Assembly: GCA_016763695.1 (NCBI GenBank)
Contig: JAESTH010000158.1
Span: 225-64,224, forward strand
Reading direction: 5' to 3'
DNA from: Alcanivoracaceae bacterium
GTDB taxonomy: Bacteria; Pseudomonadota; Gammaproteobacteria; Xanthomonadales; Marinicellaceae
Length of the DNA stretch: 64,000 nucleotides
Of this stretch, positions 21,976-39,100 are shown piece by piece. Both the position numbers and the translations under genes were made by a program. How positions within the stretch are numbered: the first letter of the stretch is position 1; every line of letters begins with the position of its first letter. The notes beneath the pieces were generated by a model. The model saw only the letters and a list, made by a program, of their open reading frames with translations, did not search any database and was not told where the DNA came from.

Positions 21976-24900
21976 TTAGTTATTGGCTTTATTACCAAAT
22001 CTGGATAAATACCAAAAATACAATACAGGTATCAATATCAGGGTCAGCATGGTGGATATCAATATGCCGCTGATTAGTGAGACGGCCAAACCATTGAATA
22101 TAGGATCGTCAAGGATGAAGAAAGCCCCCATCATGGCAGCCACGCCTGTTAGAATAATTGGCTTGGCACGGACTTTGGCGGAGTCAATAACAGCTTGCTC
22201 TAATGGATTTCCTGCATTCACCTGTATGGAAATAAAATCCACCAGTAATATAGAATTACGTACTATTATGCCTGCCAGTGCGATCATACCAATCATAGAC
22301 GTCGCTGTGAACTGTGCACCAGCAATCCAGTGACCTGGCATGACACCAATAATGGTTAATGGAATCGGTGCCATGATAATAAGTGGCACAAAATAGGAGC
22401 TAAATTGAGCCACGATCAATAAATAAATTAAAATCAGGCCAATGCCATAGGCGATACCCATATCTCTAAATGTTTCATAGGTAATTTGCCATTCACCTTC
22501 CCATTTAATCTTGGGTTGATTAACAAATTGTGGAGCGTCAATATATAATTGTTTGATTGTTTCATGCTCATTAATTTTATCGACCAGATCAAACATCCCA
22601 TATAATGGCGAATCCTGAAACCCTGACATATTGGCAGTGACAAAAGACACGGGCAATAAATCCTTATGGTAAATGGTGTTTTCCCATGTACTTTGTTGAA
22701 TGCTGATGACCTCATCTAAAATAACACTGTTACCCGATGTATTTTGAATGGGTATATTTAGTAGCGTTTGTAAATCATTTTGCCTATTGGCGGGGATTTC
22801 CATCCGAATAGGGGTGCTGTATTTGTTATTTGGGTTGTGTAGAAAACTAATATCTGTACCACTCAGAGCGGTTTGTATGGTTTTTGCTATGGCGGCCTGT
22901 GAAATTCCCAACTGGCTGGCCTTGGCTCTATCTATAACAATTATTTCTCGTAAACTGGCAGTCTCTATTGATGTGTCAACATCCACAATACCTTGAGTTT
23001 GTTTAAATATCTGTTCCACACTTTGTGCTGTTACTTTCCTCATGGCATCTGATTGTCCATAAATTTCAGCAACTATGGGGGATTGTACTGGCGGTCCTGG
23101 TGGAACTTCGACAATTTTCGCTATGGCGTTATGAGACTGGGCAATTTTGGTGATTTCTTCTCTCATTGCTACGGCTATTTCATGGCTTTTTCTAGTGCGT
23201 TGATGTTTGTCAGTCAGGGTGACCTGGATATCACCCATGTTGGGCGCTTCTCTGAGAAAGTATTGACGTACCAGGCCATTAAAATTAATTGGGGATGCCG
23301 TTCCTGCATAGGCAACCATGTGTTCTATTTCTGGAATACTTTTAAGGTATTCGCCCACTTCTATCATTACCTGATTGGTGGTTTCCAGTGTGGTTCCTTC
23401 TTGAGTATCCACTACAACCTGTATTTCTGATTTATTATCAAAAGGCAACAATTTTAAAATAACTTGTTGGTTCGGTACCAGTAATACTGATAAAAGCATA
23501 AGGAAAACAACCCCAATAACCAGTAAATAACGGTTGAGTTTACCTTGTTTGTTAGTTTGTAAAAAGGGCGTCATGAGTTTACTAAATATACTCGTTTTAC
23601 TGTTATCTTTTTCACTGTGATGGATTTTGTTACCAATAATTTTTCTAAATAACCAGGGAGTCACGATCAGAGCAATGATCAATGATAATAACATTCCCAT
23701 ACTGGCATTGATGGGGATAGGGCTCATGTAAGGACCCATCAAACCTGTGACAAATGCCATTGGCATCAGTGCGGCTATCACAGTAAAAGTGGCTAATATG
23801 GTTGGCCCCCCGACTTCATCAACTGCCAATGGGATGAGTTCTGATAATTTCCTTTTCCCCAATGATAAATGTCGGTGAATGTTTTCAACAATGACCACAG
23901 CGTCATCAACCAAAATTCCAATAGAAAATATGAGGGCAAATAAAGATACGCGATTTAAAGTAAAGCCATATGCCCATGAGGCAAACAGTGTCACGGCTAG
24001 GGTGATTGATACTGCCAGACCAACAACGATGGCTTCACGCCAGCCCAAAAATATCATGATCAGCACTACCACTGATACTGTTGCAAAGGCAAGTTTAGTC
24101 ATTAGCTTTTTGGCCTTGTCATCCGCTGTTTTGCCATAGTTACGGGTGATTTCTACATGTACATCATCAGGAATATAGCTGGATTTCAATTGCTCAGTAG
24201 CATTGATAACGGCATTGGCAATGTCAACCGCATTGGTGCCTGCTTTTTTACCAATTGCATGAGTTACAGCTGGCGCAAAATTAGGTTTTCCAGCCCCTTT
24301 CCATGCCGAACCAGCCGTTATCCAGACATAGTTTTCAGGGGTGTCAGGGCCATCTTTGATGGTAGCAATGTCGGTTAAATAGACAGGCATGCCATTTTTT
24401 ACGGTGACCACTAAATCTTTGATGTCTTCAATGTTGGCCAGCAATGTTCCCGTTGCCACTGGTATGGTCTGATTGTTGGTGACTCTATAACCAGAGTGAG
24501 TGGCCATATTGTTGCTTTTTAGGGCTTGTTCTATGCTGTTGAAATCCAGATTGTAGGCAGATAAATCTTCAGGGTTAAGTAATATATGCACCACATGCTG
24601 TGGGCCTCCTGTCGTCTGCACCAGTCTGGTATCGGAAATACGCTTGATTTCGGCCTCTAAGGCATGGGAAACCTGTTGTAATTCATAACTGCCTTTTTGT
24701 GGGTTGTCACTCCAGAATGTTACGGTGTCAATGGGTACGTCATCTATGCCCATGGGTTTTATTAGGGGTTGTGATGCACCCAGTGCAAGAGGCAGCCAAT
24801 CTGAATTGGAGTGGATTTCATTATACAAGCTGACTATGGCATCTTTTCTTTTTATGCCCACTTTAAACTGCACACTGATAATGGCCATACCAGGTTTAGA

Positions 24901-25164
24901 GGTTGAATATACATGCTTGATGTTGGCAATTGAGTCTAATACCTGTTCAGCTGGGTAGGAGATTAAATTTTCCACTTCTTTGGCACTGGCTCCTGGTAGG
25001 GCGATATAGACATTGGCAAAAGTGACATCTATTTGTGGCTCTTCTTCTCTTGGTGTCACATACACCGCAAAAATCCCAAGAAGTACCATAACGATTGCAA
25101 TCAAAGGTGTAATTGGGTTGGTCTGAAACTTATCAGCCAGTTTTCCTGAAAGTGAATATTTCAT
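21976..25164 (-). CDS. RND efflux transporter permease (AcrB/AcrD/AcrF family)
   Basis: 1062 aa with 12-TM topology and two large periplasmic loops. It has conserved RND TM4 (ALIFSIGILVDDAVVIVENI) and TM10 regions. Confidence 0.9.
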   Translation of the reverse strand: MKYSLSGKLADKFQTNPITPLIAIVMVLLGIFAVYVTPREEEPQIDVTFANVYIALPGASAKEVENLISYPAEQVLDSIANIKHVYSTSKPGMAIISVQFKVGIKRKDAIVSLYNEIHSNSDWLPLALGASQPLIKPMGIDDVPIDTVTFWSDNPQKGSYELQQVSHALEAEIKRISDTRLVQTTGGPQHVVHILLNPEDLSAYNLDFNSIEQALKSNNMATHSGYRVTNNQTIPVATGTLLANIEDIKDLVVTVKNGMPVYLTDIATIKDGPDTPENYVWITAGSAWKGAGKPNFAPAVTHAIGKKAGTNAVDIANAVINATEQLKSSYIPDDVHVEITRNYGKTADDKAKKLMTKLAFATVSVVVLIMIFLGWREAIVVGLAVSITLAVTLFASWAYGFTLNRVSLFALIFSIGILVDDAVVIVENIHRHLSLGKRKLSELIPLAVDEVGGPTILATFTVIAALMPMAFVTGLMGPYMSPIPINASMGMLLSLIIALIVTPWLFRKIIGNKIHHSEKDNSKTSIFSKLMTPFLQTNKQGKLNRYLLVIGVVFLMLLSVLLVPNQQVILKLLPFDNKSEIQVVVDTQEGTTLETTNQVMIEVGEYLKSIPEIEHMVAYAGTASPINFNGLVRQYFLREAPNMGDIQVTLTDKHQRTRKSHEIAVAMREEITKIAQSHNAIAKIVEVPPGPPVQSPIVAEIYGQSDAMRKVTAQSVEQIFKQTQGIVDVDTSIETASLREIIVIDRAKASQLGISQAAIAKTIQTALSGTDISFLHNPNNKYSTPIRMEIPANRQNDLQTLLNIPIQNTSGNSVILDEVISIQQSTWENTIYHKDLLPVSFVTANMSGFQDSPLYGMFDLVDKINEHETIKQLYIDAPQFVNQPKIKWEGEWQITYETFRDMGIAYGIGLILIYLLIVAQFSSYFVPLIIMAPIPLTIIGVMPGHWIAGAQFTATSMIGMIALAGIIVRNSILLVDFISIQVNAGNPLEQAVIDSAKVRAKPIILTGVAAMMGAFFILDDPIFNGLAVSLISGILISTMLTLILIPVLYFWYLSRFGNKANN

Positions 25165-25166
25165 TA

Positions 25167-26159
25167 TTATTTTTCCGACAGTGGATGGATGAATACTTGT
25201 TCATTGATATTTAAACCAGCAATAATTTCGATATTTTTACCATGTATTACCCCCGTTTTTACATGCCTGAGTATTTTACTATTACCATGTTTGATGTATA
25301 CCATGGTTAATTCGCTGCGGATGATTAATGCAGTGGCAGGAATTAACAAGCGTTGCGTCTCAGCCACTTTGAACGCTACTTTGACAGTCATACCAGGGAA
25401 AAGCGGTGAGAATTGTTGAGTTTGTGATGTTTCTAGCTCTAATCTTGCTTTAAATGTACGGGTCAGTTTATCAGCATAGGGGAAGATGGTTATCGCTTGA
25501 GTTTGTATTTCATTGCCATCATTGATGATAATGGCTTGCGGATTTGATTTAACTTTATTGATGATTTTTTCAGGAATATTTGTGACTACTCTTAGTTGGT
25601 CGAGGCTCAAGCCTTCCATAATGGCTGTTCCTGGGTTGACTGTTTCACCCAGTTCTACATATCTGTGGATAACTATGCCATCATATGGTGCGCGAATGAT
25701 GGTATATTCCAGCTGTTTTTGAGAACTTATTACCGCAGCCTGTGCGGCTGAAGACTTGGCCTTTAATGCATTACGATTCGATAAGGATCGATCGAGTTCG
25801 CTTTTTGCGATCAATTTTTTGGCATAAATATCTTTAATTCTTACATAATCTGTCTGTGCCTGCTCATAGGCTATTTTAGCTGCTTGGGCATTGGCTGAGA
25901 CTTGTTCTAATTGGGCTTTTTGTTCAGTATTGGTAATCTCTACCACAATAGATCCTTTGGCAACAAAATCATCAACGTCATAGTTGAGTTTTGTAACCCT
26001 ACCGGTAGTTTGTGCAGAAACTGTGGCTTTATTGACGGCTTCCACTTCTCCATTTAATTGTCGATATATGTTTACTTTTTCTAGCTTGGTTACATGCCAT
26101 TGGGCATAAGTGACTGACTGTATTAACACAAGAGAAATTATAGTGATTACTTTTTTCAT
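25167..26159 (-). CDS. RND efflux periplasmic adaptor (membrane fusion protein)
   Basis: Signal peptide, a coiled-coil hairpin region, and beta-barrel motifs of HlyD/AcrA-type MFPs. It lies 2 nt upstream of the RND permease gene. Confidence 0.85.
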   Translation of the reverse strand: MKKVITIISLVLIQSVTYAQWHVTKLEKVNIYRQLNGEVEAVNKATVSAQTTGRVTKLNYDVDDFVAKGSIVVEITNTEQKAQLEQVSANAQAAKIAYEQAQTDYVRIKDIYAKKLIAKSELDRSLSNRNALKAKSSAAQAAVISSQKQLEYTIIRAPYDGIVIHRYVELGETVNPGTAIMEGLSLDQLRVVTNIPEKIINKVKSNPQAIIINDGNEIQTQAITIFPYADKLTRTFKARLELETSQTQQFSPLFPGMTVKVAFKVAETQRLLIPATALIIRSELTMVYIKHGNSKILRHVKTGVIHGKNIEIIAGLNINEQVFIHPLSEK

Positions 26160-26210: not shown

Positions 26211-26333
26211 CTCTTATTTTTCAAGTGTAGTTGTAGATTAAAATTACCTAAAACAGAATATCTGGTAGAAATTTATTTTGCTATTGTAAATACGAACTTT
26301 ATCGTTTATGATAAATTGATTCAATTTCAAGGC

Positions 26334-27443
26334 ATGCATATGTTACGTCTCAGTTTTTCAATGCTAATTATTATGGTATGTTCCAGCGTAACTGCCATAA
26401 CATATACGAATAACGAAATCAGCAATATTATCAACACTGACAATAGAGAAATATTATCCCGAAATTTCGTCAGGGGATTCTTTGTAGCCAGTGATCCAGC
26501 AAAATATATTGATGTTTTTATACAGGATAAAAATTTGACTGACAGTGTTTTGCTTAGGGAGTACCTGTTGAATATTTTATTGACTGAAGTTTCATATCAG
26601 CCCAAGCAACTGTTTCTGCAAAATTTTATTGATAATATGAAACAGTATCAGAGCCAGGCATTTAAAGTTCACCCAGAAGGCAGGATGGAAGTACCCGTCT
26701 ACAATATACAAGCTAGAGCACAGGGGGTTGAAAATATTTGGTCGGCTACAGAATCACTTTATTATTATAGTCATTTATTCAATAAAGATCCCATTCTGGC
26801 TATTGCACAATTAAGAAAAGAGTTTGATTCACTCACTGCGCCACAGTGGCTGGGTCTGAAAAATAGTATCGATAATATCAGTACTGAAAATCACCTTAAA
26901 TTGCAGGATTACTTGCTTGAAGATATTGAGCATTTGTTGGGGTTAGATAAGTTTGTTAGCCATTATGCTTTATTCACGGCAAATAAAGATTTGGTCAGTT
27001 TAGGTTTATTTCATTTTGATAAAAGTAACGGTGAGTTTTTGTTAAGAAGTCTTTCTGATTATTTTGCTGCTGATTTTGTTACGCAGCAACTTATCCATTC
27101 GGTAGCAGACAAAAAAAACCAGACATTCGCTATTTCCATGATGCAAACCTATCTGGATCAACGGGATAATATCAGGGACTCGTTATTTCTGTACCTAAAG
27201 GATAGTCAATTATCCAGTAATGCAGCGTTTGTATTATCAACCACGCAAGATAAAGGTACTTTAAATAGACTAAAAAGCAGCTATATAAACAGCCAATCAG
27301 AAATAGAGAAAAAACAGATTATATTTGCTTTAAAAATGAATAAATTAAATGAATCTGAGGTTATTCTCAACCGCCTCATCAGTAATAAGTCTAAAGCTGA
27401 CAAAAACATATGGCTCAACAGTTTTAAAAGGGAGTCAAAATGA
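26334..27443 (+). CDS. hypothetical secreted protein
   Basis: The ORF runs from TTG at 26316, and the first ATG is at 26334. It has a hydrophobic N-terminus. Its stop overlaps the next gene's start (ATGA at 27440-27443). Confidence 0.55.
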   Translation: MHMLRLSFSMLIIMVCSSVTAITYTNNEISNIINTDNREILSRNFVRGFFVASDPAKYIDVFIQDKNLTDSVLLREYLLNILLTEVSYQPKQLFLQNFIDNMKQYQSQAFKVHPEGRMEVPVYNIQARAQGVENIWSATESLYYYSHLFNKDPILAIAQLRKEFDSLTAPQWLGLKNSIDNISTENHLKLQDYLLEDIEHLLGLDKFVSHYALFTANKDLVSLGLFHFDKSNGEFLLRSLSDYFAADFVTQQLIHSVADKKNQTFAISMMQTYLDQRDNIRDSLFLYLKDSQLSSNAAFVLSTTQDKGTLNRLKSSYINSQSEIEKKQIIFALKMNKLNESEVILNRLISNKSKADKNIWLNSFKRESK

Positions 27444-30049
27444 AGAAGGTTACGGGTCTATTATTGTTAAGTTGTGGTTTTTTTGTACAGGCACAAACCA
27501 TTGTTTCCTGGACTGAAGAGAATGGTACATTGGGCTTGGGTTACCCTGTTCCTATCCCGGTTAATACCATGGAAGCATTTGATGGTTTTCGAAGCTATGA
27601 TGGTTTGTTTGCCAAACACCAGTCAATGGCATTAAACAATCCATATATTACTGGTCAGATTGTTGGTCAAACACATTTTGATCGGGATATTTGGTCATAT
27701 GTACTCAGTGATGAAGATAACTTGACCCAGTATGGTGTTAAAGAAGGTGCCATGTTAATCAATGGTAATATTCATGCACGAGAGTGGCAGTCACCAGAAG
27801 TGCTCACGGGTATTATTGAATTGTTGGATGAAAACTCACAGGATCTTTCTTTACACCAGTTTCTATTAGAAAACACCACAATAGTGACGGTACCAGTTAA
27901 TAATGTTGATGGTTTAATACAAACTCAACGATTCCCTGATCAAAACTGGTTTAATCCCCAGGACAATAATGGCCCGCGAGATGGTCGTATGCGCCGGAAA
28001 AACATGTTAAATGTAGATGAGAACTTGTTGACTCAGTCGGATTATTTATTGGGGGTAGATCTCAATCGTAACAATAATCCTTTTTGGGCTACATCAAATA
28101 ACTCATCACCTATACCTTCATCAATAGTTCATCATGGTGCTTCTGCACAGTCAGAGCCAGAAACACAGGCACGGCTTAATGCTGCCAATTTAGTTGATGC
28201 TGACCAGGTGCGAGTTTATACTGATGTTCATTCATTTACCATGGTACATTTTTCGGTGAGAACTGGTAACCAAAGCAGAAATATTTTACAGGCGAGGTTA
28301 TTACAGGATTTTACTGGACATCATCGAGCCTTTCCTGCCGCAAAAAACTATGTTGACAACCCTAGTGGGCCAGACTTTGGTATTGGTTCTACCGATGAGT
28401 TTTTTGCTACAGTTTATGAGGTGCCTTCTTGGACATTAGAAATTGAACCATCAGGAAATGGAGGCATAGATTATGGTGGTTTTGGCCGTAATGGACATGA
28501 TGGCTTTATTTTGCCTGAGTCAGAAATTACTCGTGTGCGGGAACAATTGGCACAGTCATTCATGATTACCTGGTACGGACAGGCTGGGCCTCCTTCAATT
28601 ACTGAGTTGAAAATTGTAGAAAAGCAAACTTCTACTGTAATATATGATTCAGGCTGGGATATACAAGACAATGGCACCAGACAATTGCTTGAGAACGAAA
28701 TTGACAGTATCTTGCTTGGAGAAGAGTATAGTTTAATAGTCAGTTTTGATAAACCCATGCGCATTCGTGATGAAAATGGGCAGACGATACATTTACAAGG
28801 GCAATCTACCAACTCCAATGTGTTTCCACTCAATCCTAATATTACGGCCAATATCAATGGTAATTTTCTTGATCTTAATTTGTCTAATGGTCACTGGATA
28901 AATCAAAAATCAGCAGATGTGTTTTCTTATACATACTATAAAGACGATACATATTCTGTTGATTTCAGTATTCCTGTGGACGTGATTATTGATGAAGAAT
29001 CAAGACTAAGTTGGTCGATAGATGTGGCTGATATGATCATGCAGAAACTGGATGCTGATCCAGCAACGGTTGTTACCTGGGCAGATGGGCAATGGCAAAA
29101 TTATGAAAATAGTAATGGCCTGGCATCAATATCAGGTGGTACAGATAAGAGCTACTCAATGTCCGTGGCTGCATCAAGTGATCATGCTTTTAAAGCTTTT
29201 ATTCAACCCACAGGTCTATACTTTGATCCGCTGCGAAATGGTGAAGGTTTTTCATATGAACTGCTGCAAAATAATCTGGTTTGGTTACAATGGTTTACCT
29301 ATGATGGTCAAGGTAACCAGCGCTGGTATTCTGGCTTGGGAGAATATCATGGCAATACCATTGTGGTTAATAATCTGACTCAATCCAACGGTGGTATATT
29401 TGGTGAAGAGTTTGATCCTGAAAATATAACATTTGAAACTTTTGGTTCGATAAAAATAGTATTTTCTGGTGGGGAAGTCATTAATCCTGCTATTGGAGTT
29501 CATCAAATAGCCAGGTCGGCACAAGTACTTTTTACTGATGCCAGTGGTAGAAAACTGAGAACAGACCTGCAACAAATCAGTTTTGTAAAGGGAGCCATTA
29601 ATAATCTTGATTTCATTTTCCCAACTGTAGTTATAGAAGAACCCGTTGGTTTAATTACTGGTTCATGGTATGACCCACAGCGCAGTGGTGAGGGTTATAT
29701 CATCGAAATACTGGAAGACGAACGTGCCATATTGATATGGTATAGTTATGATTTGACAGGTAAACATATGTGGTTAATTGATTCGGAAGGAATTATAACT
29801 GTTGAGGGTAATGATATCACTCTGGACTTCAATAATGTTCAGGTAACTAATGGTGGTATATTTGGTGAAAACTTTAACCCAGATGATGTCAACACTCTCC
29901 CGTGGGGCACATTACATTTTGAGTTGAGTTGTCATGGTAGTGGTATAGTTAATTATTCTTCAACTATAGAGGGGTTCGGCTCAGGACAATACAATGTTTC
30001 GAAACTAACTAATCCTTTGTTACGTAACTTTGTCTGTGATGTTGAATAG
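27440..30049 (+). CDS. secreted M14-family zinc carboxypeptidase with large C-terminal extension containing a tandemly duplicated module
   Basis: Signal peptide. Zn-binding HxxE motif (NIHAREWQSPE). Two C-terminal homologous modules (FDPLRNGEGFSYELL ... WFTYD ... NGGIFGEEFDPE, and YDPQRSGEGYIIEIL ... WYSYD ... NGGIFGENFNPD). Confidence 0.75.
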   Translation: MKKVTGLLLLSCGFFVQAQTIVSWTEENGTLGLGYPVPIPVNTMEAFDGFRSYDGLFAKHQSMALNNPYITGQIVGQTHFDRDIWSYVLSDEDNLTQYGVKEGAMLINGNIHAREWQSPEVLTGIIELLDENSQDLSLHQFLLENTTIVTVPVNNVDGLIQTQRFPDQNWFNPQDNNGPRDGRMRRKNMLNVDENLLTQSDYLLGVDLNRNNNPFWATSNNSSPIPSSIVHHGASAQSEPETQARLNAANLVDADQVRVYTDVHSFTMVHFSVRTGNQSRNILQARLLQDFTGHHRAFPAAKNYVDNPSGPDFGIGSTDEFFATVYEVPSWTLEIEPSGNGGIDYGGFGRNGHDGFILPESEITRVREQLAQSFMITWYGQAGPPSITELKIVEKQTSTVIYDSGWDIQDNGTRQLLENEIDSILLGEEYSLIVSFDKPMRIRDENGQTIHLQGQSTNSNVFPLNPNITANINGNFLDLNLSNGHWINQKSADVFSYTYYKDDTYSVDFSIPVDVIIDEESRLSWSIDVADMIMQKLDADPATVVTWADGQWQNYENSNGLASISGGTDKSYSMSVAASSDHAFKAFIQPTGLYFDPLRNGEGFSYELLQNNLVWLQWFTYDGQGNQRWYSGLGEYHGNTIVVNNLTQSNGGIFGEEFDPENITFETFGSIKIVFSGGEVINPAIGVHQIARSAQVLFTDASGRKLRTDLQQISFVKGAINNLDFIFPTVVIEEPVGLITGSWYDPQRSGEGYIIEILEDERAILIWYSYDLTGKHMWLIDSEGIITVEGNDITLDFNNVQVTNGGIFGENFNPDDVNTLPWGTLHFELSCHGSGIVNYSSTIEGFGSGQYNVSKLTNPLLRNFVCDVE

Positions 30050-34592: not shown

Positions 34593-34645
34593 ATTTTTCC
34601 CACGTTATAAAAAGAAAAACAAATATAGCTAATTTCGTATGCAAG

Positions 34646-34698
34646 ATCAACCACATGTCCCAGATTTAACTTTTTATGTCCCAGCATATAAAAAAATC
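34646..34698 (-). promoter_or_regulatory. upstream regulatory motif copy A: two 9-bp direct repeats (CTGGGACAT on the minus strand) separated by 12 bp, flanked by conserved sequence
   Basis: On the plus strand ATGTCCCAG occurs at 34655-34663 and at 34676-34684. The whole ~52-nt block aligns with 38349-38399 upstream of the precursor gene. Confidence 0.55.
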
Positions 34699-37920: not shown

Positions 37921-37965
37921 AAAAAGTGTGCCTTATATATTGTTACATTATTAATTTAATTGAAA

Positions 37966-37990
37966 GGAAAAAAGAATGATTCTTTTCTCC
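37966..37990 (-). terminator. intergenic hairpin between the precursor gene and lanB (candidate partial terminator/attenuator)
   Basis: The minus-strand RNA reads GGAGAAAAGAAU-C-AUUCUUUUUUCC. The arms are 12 nt with one G-U pair, followed by UUUC. It is AU-rich, so it is probably weak. Confidence 0.4.
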
Positions 37991-38015
37991 TTTTTAAAAA
38001 GTTATACTTTCTTAC

Positions 38016-38189
38016 TTATTTGACATCACCATTATTGCTTGTGCACATAAGTGTAGTGATAGTAAGACTGGGTGGTGGTGGATCGTTAGGGTCTCCGATT
38101 GTTCCACCAGCAACTAGATCCAGTTCTGAAGGAGTGAGATCCCGAATAGTGGTTTTTTCGATCGCAAATTGATTGTTTAAATCTTTCAT
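38016..38189 (-). CDS. RiPP precursor peptide (LanA-like), 57 aa: 29-aa leader ending in a double-glycine motif plus 28-aa Thr/Ser/Pro-rich core with one Cys
   Basis: Sequence MKDLNNQFAIEKTTIRDLTPSELDLVAGG|TIGDPNDPPPPSLTITTLMCTSNNGDVK. AAGG lies about 9 nt upstream of the ATG at 38189. The gene is 95 nt upstream of lanB on the same strand. Confidence 0.75.
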   Translation of the reverse strand: MKDLNNQFAIEKTTIRDLTPSELDLVAGGTIGDPNDPPPPSLTITTLMCTSNNGDVK

Positions 38190-38291
38190 AATGTTTACCT
38201 TTTTAGTAATTATTTTAATATGCCTAATAAGTAATTTAATTATCACCTTTAAGCAGTTAACTATGAGTTGTCTAACTCAAGAGCAATACCT

Positions 38292-38310
38292 GATAACAGT
38301 TGTTGTTATC
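38292..38310. promoter_or_regulatory. 7-bp inverted repeat GATAACA-N5-TGTTATC upstream of the precursor gene (candidate operator)
   Basis: The arms are exact. The site lies about 100-120 nt upstream of the precursor ATG. Confidence 0.35.
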
Positions 38311-38348
38311 AAGTAGGCAAACGGAATAATAATATACTTAACGATTAA

Positions 38349-38399
38349 ATCAACGACATGCCCTAATAGTGATATTTTTAGTCCCAATATATAAAATTC
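38349..38399 (-). promoter_or_regulatory. upstream regulatory motif copy B (paralogue of 34646-34698)
   Basis: The minus strand reads TTGGGACT-N-TAGGGCATGTCGTTGAT with the same 21-bp spacing. Shared flanks are TTTATAT and CATGT(G/C)GTTGAT. Confidence 0.5.
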
Positions 38400-38521
38400 A
38401 ATTCTTTTTCCTGTAATGGTTGATTATCCTGTGGCATTAATATTAAACAGATAGTTCAGCTAAAATTTATCTAACTTTGTTATAATACTGTTTTTGAAGG
38501 CATAGCATCGAGAGATAAAAT

Positions 38522-39100
38522 ATGAAAAAAATTAATTTAGTCATTATTTCAGGCGTATTTCTGTTTGTGAGTGCCTGCGTCACTATTAATGTATATTTTC
38601 CTGCGGCTGAGGCTGAAAGTGCTGCTGCAAAAATTGTCAATAAAATTATTGGCGAAGACGATAATGCAGGAGTCAGTGATGATGGTAATCCACAAAGTTA
38701 TCATTTTAATCCGTTAAACTGGTTTATTTCGTCTGCTCATGCAGAGGTGAATATCAATATTTCTTCACCTGCTATAACTGAAATTACCAACAGAATGAAA
38801 GGCCGCTATGATAATGATCTAAAGATTTATTTAGATAAAGCCATTATTGGCTTCACTAATCAGGGTTTTATTGAGATTCTGGAAATCAAAAAACTGGGTT
38901 TAAAAGACAGACAAAGAATTAAAAAACTGGTTGCTGATGATAACCATGATCGTGAGGCATTGTATCGTGAGCTGGCGGTGGCAAATGGTCATGCTGACTG
39001 GGAGGATTCAATACGCAATGTCTTTGTCAAAACATGGAAAAATCAAGCGCATAAAGGTTGGAAATACCAGAATGCAGATGGTTTATGGCAAACTAAATAA
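38522..39100 (+). CDS. YdbL-family periplasmic protein (DUF1318)
   Basis: Signal or lipoprotein-like N-terminus (FLFVSAC). The C-terminal DNHDREALYRELAVANGH ... WKNQAHKGWKYQNADGLWQTK is typical of DUF1318. Confidence 0.65.
   Translation: MKKINLVIISGVFLFVSACVTINVYFPAAEAESAAAKIVNKIIGEDDNAGVSDDGNPQSYHFNPLNWFISSAHAEVNINISSPAITEITNRMKGRYDNDLKIYLDKAIIGFTNQGFIEILEIKKLGLKDRQRIKKLVADDNHDREALYRELAVANGHADWEDSIRNVFVKTWKNQAHKGWKYQNADGLWQTK

Follow-up and report, generated by a model that had tools for sequence, protein, structure and literature searches.

A precursor gene beside a full-length LanB dehydratase, from a rare family of gammaproteobacterial loci in which no LanC was found

The 64,000-nt stretch of DNA analyzed here (the window) lies on a 64.5-kb contig of a metagenome-assembled genome (MAG) labelled Alcanivoracaceae bacterium. 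Its minus strand carries a short gene, lanA, followed in order by a 95-nt spacer, the gene of a LanB-type dehydratase (lanB), a 121-nt spacer, a gene for an 82-aa protein (p82), and a gene for a 1355-aa hybrid two-component system (Table 1). An initial annotation, made from the letters without database searches, had read the lanA open reading frame (ORF) as a precursor peptide associated with LanB. The ORF is a genuine gene, the structural gene of a LanB-associated ribosomal peptide; the lanB that begins 95 nt 3' of its stop codon is intact, and peptides with related leaders were found beside other LanBs of the same clade. These comparisons were made across 12 clade loci, namely, the window and 11 related contexts (L001, L002, and L081 to L089), and 78 outgroup loci. 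Several of the clade loci reach 10 kb to both sides, and their architectures differ.

Table 1. Positions of the genes, peptide segments, and putative regulatory features of the lanA locus in the window
Feature	Position	Strand	Remarks
lanA ORF	38189..38016	-	57 aa; stop codon 38016-38018; translation
Leader, 29 aa, MKDLNNQFAIEKTTIRDLTPSELDLVAGG	38103..38189	-	F-x-I-x-K-x5-L box and Gly-Gly end; translation
Core, 28 aa, TIGDPNDPPPPSLTITTLMCTSNNGDVK	38019..38102	-	7 Ser/Thr, 1 Cys; translation
Ribosome-binding site AAGG	38198..38201	-	8 nt 5' of ATG; read from sequence
Conserved block GGTGATAATTAA	38236..38247	-	Resembles extended -10 element; holds GTG of 76-aa ORF; unvarying in four loci
Palindrome TACTTGATAACAACAACTGTTATCAGGTA, 12-bp stem (TGATAACA...TGTTATCA)	38287..38315	-	Predicted lanA 5' untranslated region; terminator-like scan; partly conserved in L081
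Sigma-70-like promoter of lanA, TTGATT-16-TATTAT	38326..38353	-	Consensus scan; both hexamers in L081-conserved block; function inferred
Putative promoter/operator motif of lanA, TGGGAC-N17-GGGCATGTCGTTGAT	38349..38386	-	Direct repeat ~21 nt apart; 3' end overlaps -35
Perfect 14-bp hairpin, lanA-lanB spacer	37963..37993	-	Folding energy of -16.5 kcal/mol over 100 nt (z = -2.75)
LanB, full-length, 1068 aa	34714..37920	-	PF04738 2.4e-96, PF14028 9.7e-52
Second motif copy, TGGGAC-N17-GGACATGTGGTTGAT, before p82 gene	34646..34683	-	Aligns with intergenic region between exporter and small-protein genes of L081, L082, L085
Predicted p82 promoter, TTGATC-17-TATATT	34650..34622	-	Consensus scan
p82, small secreted protein, 82 aa	34344..34592	-	N-terminal signal-like helix, three invariant Cys, two nearly invariant His
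Hybrid two-component system, 1355 aa	30101..34168	-	Pfam: periplasmic Reg_prop/Y_Y_Y sensor, HisKA, HATPase, receiver, AraC-type helix-turn-helix

The translated lanA product consists of the leader MKDLNNQFAIEKTTIRDLTPSELDLVAGG and the core TIGDPNDPPPPSLTITTLMCTSNNGDVK. Exactly this peptide is deposited as a hypothetical protein (MBL4660257.1), and the adjoining entry, MBL4660256.1, is annotated "lantibiotic dehydratase." Orthologs of lanA that are 89 to 95% identical were identified in L086, L087, and P0043. Comparison of lanA with its ortholog gave a ratio of nonsynonymous to synonymous substitution rates (dN/dS) of 0.09 to 0.14, resulting from 6 synonymous versus 2 or 3 nonsynonymous changes, and dS was approximately 0.17 to 0.28 in the comparisons of lanA, lanB, and p82.

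The LanB encoded beside this precursor gene contains both the glutamylation (PF04738) and the elimination (PF14028) domain, as expected of a class I system. Among solved structures, that of MadB (9G04), a class I dehydratase, is the nearest, and those of NisB and MibB come next. From pairwise HMMER alignments, Y80, R83, R87, T89, and D121 of NisB correspond to Y96, R99, R103, T105, and D137 of the window LanB, and R786, E823, R826, and H961 correspond to R833, E873, R876, and H1023. Roles for T89, D121, R786, E823, and R826 of NisB are reportedly assigned in the work on its structure by Ortega et al. (2015). All nine positions are invariant or nearly so in an alignment of 17 clade members. According to the accessible part of Khusainov et al. 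(2015), Y80, R83, R87, and H961 are essential in NisB. The window LanB looks catalytically competent; the dN/dS of lanB is 0.13. A small LanB of the PEARL type, which has the glutamylation domain only, was ruled out, as the window LanB has an elimination domain, catalytic residues included. A thiopeptide- or pyritide-type product was likewise rejected, as no YcaO or other azole-forming family and no [4+2] cycloaddition family of Pfam was found among the ORFs of the window or in the related loci. A match to TIGR03891 reflected merely the C-terminal domain of LanB.

The clade to which this LanB belongs is small. Among 5.8 billion proteins, just 16 share 43 to 92% identity with the window LanB, and the next match is at 27%. 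In 185,579 species genomes, clade LanBs were identified in an uncultured Marinicella (44%) and a Marinicellaceae MAG (43%), with all other matches at 30% or less. The hosts, as sampled, are marine or hydrothermal Gammaproteobacteria, represented by MAGs labelled Alcanivoracaceae, Marinicella, and Marinicellaceae.

Using a leader-pattern search of the clade loci together with a profile search of the 5.8 billion proteins, approximately 40 distinct peptides with a shared leader were identified. The family profile matched just 31 of the 5.8 billion, and the few that are named are all called hypothetical. In the contexts that were inspected (L001, L002, and L081 to L089), the leader-matching peptides adjoin clade LanBs. 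The initial annotation had suggested looking for similar small ORFs next to LanB homologs and had named a lack of conservation there as the point on which its reading would fail; such ORFs were found by both searches, and the gene is conserved beside the clade lanB.

The family consensus of the leader is M-K-x-L-x-N-x-x-F-x-I-x-K-T-T-M-R-D-L-T-P-x-E-x-x-x-V-A-G-G. In an alignment of 22 members, R16, L18, T19, E22, V26, and G28 are invariant, while F8, I10, and T14 are nearly so. The window leader carries an LxLxKx5L-type box that is conserved across the family, here in the form F8-A-I10-E-K12-TTIRD-L18, in which F and I replace the L residues. FAIE had been put forward as a candidate recognition box, a proposal with which the family agrees, as F8, I10, and L18 show no or almost no variation and most members have K12. 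The leader ends in VAGG, and V-[AG]-G-[GA] holds across the family. Its final 12 residues, L-T-P-S-E-L-D-L-V-A-G-G, fit the double-glycine consensus as had been noted, with L(-12), E(-8), L(-7), V(-4), G(-2), and G(-1) in place.

The description of this leader as a hybrid holds insofar as both features are present, but the combination is not new, as it is a published leader type of Gram-negative class I systems. The accessible part of Walker et al. 2020 (PMC7268733) describes class I precursors of Bacteroidetes in which LxLxKx5L precedes GG, alongside a C39 protease, and double-glycine leaders are described for the viridisin, thalassomonasin, and Ped15 precursors in the accessible part of PMC9680876. 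The leader is thus of a type known from class I lanthipeptides of Bacteroidota and Gammaproteobacteria and is not notable by itself. NF038153 (lant_leader_L1a) matched the window leader weakly (15.8 bits, E = 0.012; cut-off, 22 bits), and the family is a distant branch of the known LxLxKx5L...GG leader type.

The 28-aa core contains 5 Thr, 2 Ser, 1 Cys, and a PPPP tract, as had been counted, with 5 Pro in total. Its computed monoisotopic mass is 2897.38 Da unmodified and 2771.31 Da after 7 dehydrations. Three natural variants retain PPPP, TITT, and the Cys. Of the polyproline core previously described, the PPPP tract itself stands, but it is confined to three near-identical variants of this lineage and is not a family trait. 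The trait of the family is its richness in Thr, which makes up 25.6% of core residues, followed by Gly (10.5%), Ile (10.4%), and Pro (8.9%). Among 40 cores, 29 contain one Cys, 4 contain two, and 7 contain none. Precursors of the outgroup that have this leader style and come from loci with LanC contain 3 to 10 Cys, compared with 0 to 2 in the clade.

The few Cys residues follow a placement rule. In the window, where Ser/Thr and a suitably placed Cys for a thioether ring are both present in the core, Cys20 has Thr at -3, -4, and -6. In 36 nonredundant cores, all 33 Cys have a Ser or Thr at -2 to -5, and none of 2,000 shuffles reached 33 (mean, 23.0; standard deviation, 2.6). No bias in Ser/Thr C-terminal to these 33 Cys was found in the same cores. 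This placement may be read as the signature of a small ring between dehydroalanine (Dha) or dehydrobutyrine (Dhb) and Cys.

Several other features recur in subsets of the cores. In L084 (L084:4800-14100), ITITITITITTT-type runs are present among the cores, several of which have ...DPC at the C terminus, so that their final residue is Cys. Collagen-like repeats (GPSGPTGFTGP...) are present at L001:13332-13622, L002:12929-13201, and L089:14467-14673 and in P0058 and P0061. NF033629 (RiPP_CPAC) gave weak matches, far below its 60-bit cut-off, to the L001 precursor and one other family member. An acidic tail, DDGIFDDGFDE(Q/R)P, ends the cores at L089:13802-14002 and in P0056, P0057, and P0059 and could be a follower or recognition sequence.

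Lanthionine synthetase C-like cyclases (LanC; PF05147) were searched for in several ways. None was found in the 64-kb window by Pfam scans of large ORFs, a LanC motif scan, or tblastn, and none was found in the 11 related loci from Pfam annotation of the L001 and L002 neighbors and the precomputed Pfam annotation of L081 to L089. A LanC-like ORF (WCxG...CHG regular expression) was detected in 0 of the 12 clade loci versus 50 of the 78 outgroup loci, and tblastn with 48 LanC-like outgroup proteins gave no match in any clade locus. The absence of LanC would thus appear to be a property of the clade loci. Separately, a Chitinophaga MAG of the outgroup (L034:4791-5650; LanB 28% identical) encodes three Thr/Ser-rich precursors with one Cys each, no LanC-like ORF was found on the piece of its contig that was scanned, and it may represent an independent LanC-less lineage in Bacteroidota.

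The typical full cluster of the clade comprises at least one precursor gene, LanB, HlyD, an exporter with a C39 peptidase and an ATP-binding cassette (C39-ABC exporter, also termed PCAT), one to three small secreted proteins (82 to 103 aa), and the hybrid two-component regulator. All of these were identified in L085 and L001, and L081, L082, and L088 agree with it as far as their contigs extend. HlyD and PCAT follow LanB or lanA in six relatives, namely, L001, L002 (which carries the exporter pair), L081, L082, L085, and L088. These PCATs share 53 to 73% identity with that of L081, the same range as the identity of their LanBs. Precursor genes may be numerous: six are present in L089, and L084, a 1.56-Mb metagenomic contig, has two tandem clade LanB paralogs and nine precursor genes followed by a transposase (L084:4800-14100).

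The window departs from this arrangement. As had been stated initially, no C39-ABC exporter was found in the 64 kb, either by Pfam scans of large ORFs or by tblastn with the PCAT and HlyD of a relative, and a C39-peptidase ABC exporter is likewise absent from the L087 locus. The view that the Gly-Gly motif is the site of such an exporter gains from the relatives, which encode one next to LanB. L086 and L087 are the close relatives of the window (LanB more than 90% identical; L087 syntenic) and share its reduced layout, in which LanB leads directly to the 82-aa gene. The spacer between lanB and p82 in the window aligns with the spacer between PCAT and p82 of L081, L082, and L085, promoter included. 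The simplest reading of this alignment is that HlyD and PCAT were lost in a common ancestor of the window, L086, and L087. When the PCAT of a relative was searched against the 5.8 billion proteins, no close match labelled Alcanivoracaceae was present among the best 120.

The remaining members of the cluster and the sequences that may control them are also shared. The pattern TGGGAC-N17-GGRCATGTNGTTGAT has exactly two matches in the 64 kb (38386..38349 and 34683..34646), with 0.00 expected by chance. The block upstream of lanA hardly differs in the window and L081, even though lanB has reached saturation at synonymous sites in this comparison (dS > 2). The motif was identified upstream of lanA in L081, L082, L085, L086, and L087, and a relaxed form was found solely ahead of genes for lanA or the small protein in L081, L082, and L085 to L088 and in none of the 78 outgroup loci. 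With two GGGAC-like half-sites, 21 nt apart and overlapping the -35, it has the look of an activator site. The palindrome in the predicted leader region of the lanA transcript could be a hairpin or an operator. Between lanA and lanB of the window, L081, L082, L085, L087, and L088, a perfect stem of 10 to 14 bp is located 15 to 25 nt past the lanA stop codon; its sequence differs in each lineage, so it is the structure rather than the sequence that is conserved. By analogy with the hairpins of lantibiotic operons, it would limit read-through into lanB or stabilize the lanA transcript.

The hybrid two-component system adjoins the cluster in L001, L085, L087, L088 (partial), and L089. Its identity to the window regulator tracks that of LanB (48.6% versus 51% for L085 and 38.8% versus 44% for L001), which makes its AraC domain the candidate binder of the motif. 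Homologs of p82 are present in one to three copies in most clade loci, and the dN/dS of p82 is 0.16. No Pfam or NCBIfam match to p82 was found, and approximately four genuine representatives were identified among 1.84 billion proteins. Matches of 2982 and 1013 aa are repeat-rich adhesins (Big_9, cadherin, and Flg_new repeats) and were taken as spurious. A single-sequence AlphaFold model of p82 had a predicted local distance difference test (pLDDT) score of 50 and was confident solely in the N-terminal helix. The absence of LanC, the loss of the exporter pair, the placement rule for the single Cys, the co-inheritance of p82 and the regulator, and the shared promoter motif are all points beyond the initial annotation.

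Taken as a whole, lanA probably encodes the precursor of a LanB-dependent peptide of a rare marine family, with a product that would form without LanC, have at most one ring, and lose its leader in trans. In the proposed pathway, the hybrid two-component system would sense a periplasmic signal, and its AraC-type domain would bind the TGGGAC...GGRCAT repeat that overlaps the -35 of both promoters. Transcription of lanA would be in excess over that of lanB, with the hairpin acting as a partial terminator or stabilizer. LanB would bind the F-x-I-x-K-x5-L box of the leader and, with Glu-tRNA(Glu), glutamylate as many as seven Ser/Thr in the core, with elimination of glutamate then giving Dha and Dhb; dehydration by LanB is well supported. 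Cys20 may then add to Dhb16 or Dhb17. A single small methyllanthionine ring would result with no dedicated LanC taking part; its closure would be spontaneous, under the control of the substrate, or would depend on an unlinked enzyme. The most likely product is a largely linear, Dhb-rich and Pro-rich peptide with at most one ring. A C39 peptidase-ABC exporter with its HlyD partner would remove the leader after Gly-Gly; as these two genes were lost from the interval between lanB and p82, cleavage and export must come in trans in the window lineage. p82 may be a co-regulated periplasmic accessory, for which immunity or signal handling is a guess.

Several points weigh against this pathway. LanC-free ring closure and leader removal in trans are its weakest inferred steps. 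Spontaneous addition of Cys to Dhb is slower than addition to Dha, and it is because the residues near Cys20 are Thr that LanC-free closure is the weakest link. The ring is not obligatory for the family, as 7 of the 40 cores have no Cys, and the shuffle control overstates independence, as the tested cores are related. The NF038153 cut-off was not reached by the window leader, and only 5 of the 22 family members match this model at E ≤ 1 (best, 0.0017). The assignment of the motif to the AraC domain is inferred from co-occurrence only. For every member of the family, expression, modification, and activity are predictions from sequence. Finally, the 64 kb covers only part of the MAG, and LanC and PCAT may be encoded elsewhere in the genome.

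The last point opens the way to an ordinary class I system, in which LanC and the C39-ABC exporter are encoded elsewhere and the product is a conventional one-ring LanB/LanC lanthipeptide. This would suit a core Cys with Thr at -3 and -4, a placement of Cys across the family that follows the pattern of LanC substrates, and a leader of the LanBC type known in Gram-negative bacteria, as well as the limited span of the MAG that is visible. It nevertheless appears unlikely, as a LanC-like gene is missing from all 12 clade loci, including those with 10 kb on both sides and with differing architectures, compared with its presence in 50 of the 78 outgroup loci; moreover, outgroup precursors with the same leader style have 3 to 10 Cys, set against 0 to 2 in the clade, and Cys is lacking altogether from 7 of the 40 cores.

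Very improbable is a decaying remnant, in which the precursor has gone unprocessed and unexported since the loss of HlyD and PCAT and the cluster is becoming a pseudogene. In its favor, both genes are gone exactly between lanB and p82 in the window, L086, and L087, and most relatives have both; yet since the window split from L086 and L087 (dS 0.28), all of them exporter-less, the genes have stayed intact, with the low dN/dS values given above for lanB, lanA, and p82, and both promoter motifs, the ribosome-binding site, and the hairpin have been retained. That the lanA ORF is a chance ORF or has the wrong start, the real gene being a 76-aa ORF or there being no gene, is hardly credible. Such an ORF, starting at the GTG at 38246, is present in the window, and the GTG-initiated frame is open in L081 as well, but the residues encoded by the extension are not conserved between the two (alignment read by eye), while the 57-aa part is. 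The initial annotation had preferred the ATG at 38189, with AAGG upstream, to the 76-aa ORF; the ORF and the AAGG are as it described them, with the spacing counted as 8 nt and kept. The choice is further supported by the family N terminus (family members in the clade loci all start with MK or hold MK a few residues in, as do most database matches), by the AAAGGTAAACATT-ATG block, which is unvarying across four aligned loci, and by NCBI's 57-aa call, MBL4660257.1. The family was seen only beside LanB, and a chance ORF is disfavored by this linkage to a single LanB clade together with the rarity of profile matches (31 in 5.8 billion) and the dN/dS of lanA.

[quoted passage not shown] The peptide would serve as the autoinducing signal of the co-inherited two-component system, acting through the TGGGAC...GGRCAT promoters, with p82 as a partner in immunity, signal binding, or ring closure, and the exporter-less lineage of the window would either be a responder to the signal or rely on a different exporter. 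As a whole, this extension is distinctly doubtful.

A literature search on LanB-only or cyclase-free Thr-rich peptides found no description of this LanB clade, with many subscription papers outside its reach, and as far as the searchable literature shows, the cluster is apparently an undescribed variant of the class I lanthipeptide system. The closest parallels are pinensins, Ped15.1/15.2, thalassomonasins A/B, and viridisins, which, from the accessible parts of the sources (PMC9680876; PMC7268733), have a full-length LanB, an LxLxKx5L-type box with a Gly-Gly leader, a C39-ABC exporter encoded in the cluster (in the present family, by relatives of the window only), often more than one precursor gene, and marine Gammaproteobacteria among their hosts. 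Unlike the present loci, with LanC in 0 of 12 and 0 to 2 Cys per core, they have LanC and Cys-rich cores according to those parts, in which a hybrid two-component regulator and a small secreted protein are not mentioned for them. Moreover, no LanB outside the clade exceeds 30% identity to the window LanB, and the NF038153 cut-off is not reached. The leader consensus is shared with double-glycine peptides exported by PCATs (class II bacteriocins, microcins, and class II lanthipeptides), and PCAT and HlyD are adjacent in the relatives; here, in contrast, the leader must also recruit LanB, and the window locus lacks genes for PCAT and HlyD.

The nisin operon (NisA/B/T/C/P/R/K) likewise places the precursor gene immediately upstream of lanB and a stem-loop in the gap. 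LanB chemistry, catalytic residues, and two-component control are alike, but no FNLD box, NisP-type site, NisC, or lipid II-binding motif is present here, and in place of NisRK there is a single hybrid protein whose output domain is of the AraC type. The predicted product, largely linear and rich in dehydrobutyrine, resembles linaridins such as cypemycin, of which it would be a functional analog. To our knowledge, dehydration in linaridins proceeds without LanB; no linaridin-type genes were seen here, the leaders differ, and linaridin hosts are Actinobacteria. LanB-type dehydratases without LanC are known from thiopeptides, goadsporin, and dehydrazoles (PMC10676384), which share tRNA-dependent dehydration of Ser/Thr that leaves free dehydroamino acids. 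Those systems have YcaO or other azole enzymes and/or a [4+2] cyclase, often with a split LanB, whereas here one full-length LanB is the sole modifying enzyme.

The accessible part of Walker et al. 2020 (PMC7268733) describes large-scale lanthipeptide mining with LanC as bait, and LanB-only clusters are therefore invisible to it by design. The labelling of all named family members as hypothetical is consistent with this blind spot. Were the product made by LanB alone, nature would offer in this family a source of peptides rich in Dhb and Pro, as well as a test case for cyclase-free thioether closure. The regulator, the Cys/His-containing secreted protein, and the cluster-specific promoter motif would together constitute a directly testable RiPP regulatory circuit in Gram-negative bacteria.

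The surroundings of the cluster were also inspected. Flanking housekeeping genes are gammaproteobacterial (rlmD-like, fabF, pabB, pabC-like, mltG, lepA, degP-like, and htpG), and Rfam and tRNA scans of the window identified no RNA genes. Resistance-nodulation-division (RND) efflux pumps (AcrB with a membrane-fusion protein) are located in the window (21976-26159) and at L001:17134-21434, L085:5321-9404, and L088:5242-9421, and were considered as a part of the cluster; they share only 22 to 26% mutual identity, and their presence is probably coincidence. Beside the regulator, on the opposite strand (window 26316-30049), are a 375-aa ORF without a Pfam match and an 869-aa M14 zinc carboxypeptidase, which were left out of the cluster because, among the other clade loci, only L087 has this pair. 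Upstream, lanA is divergent from a DUF1318 gene (38522-39100, plus strand), with the interval 38190-38521 between them. Every large gene beyond approximately 38 kb lies on the plus strand, and GC skew becomes strongly positive there, reflecting this switch in gene strand.

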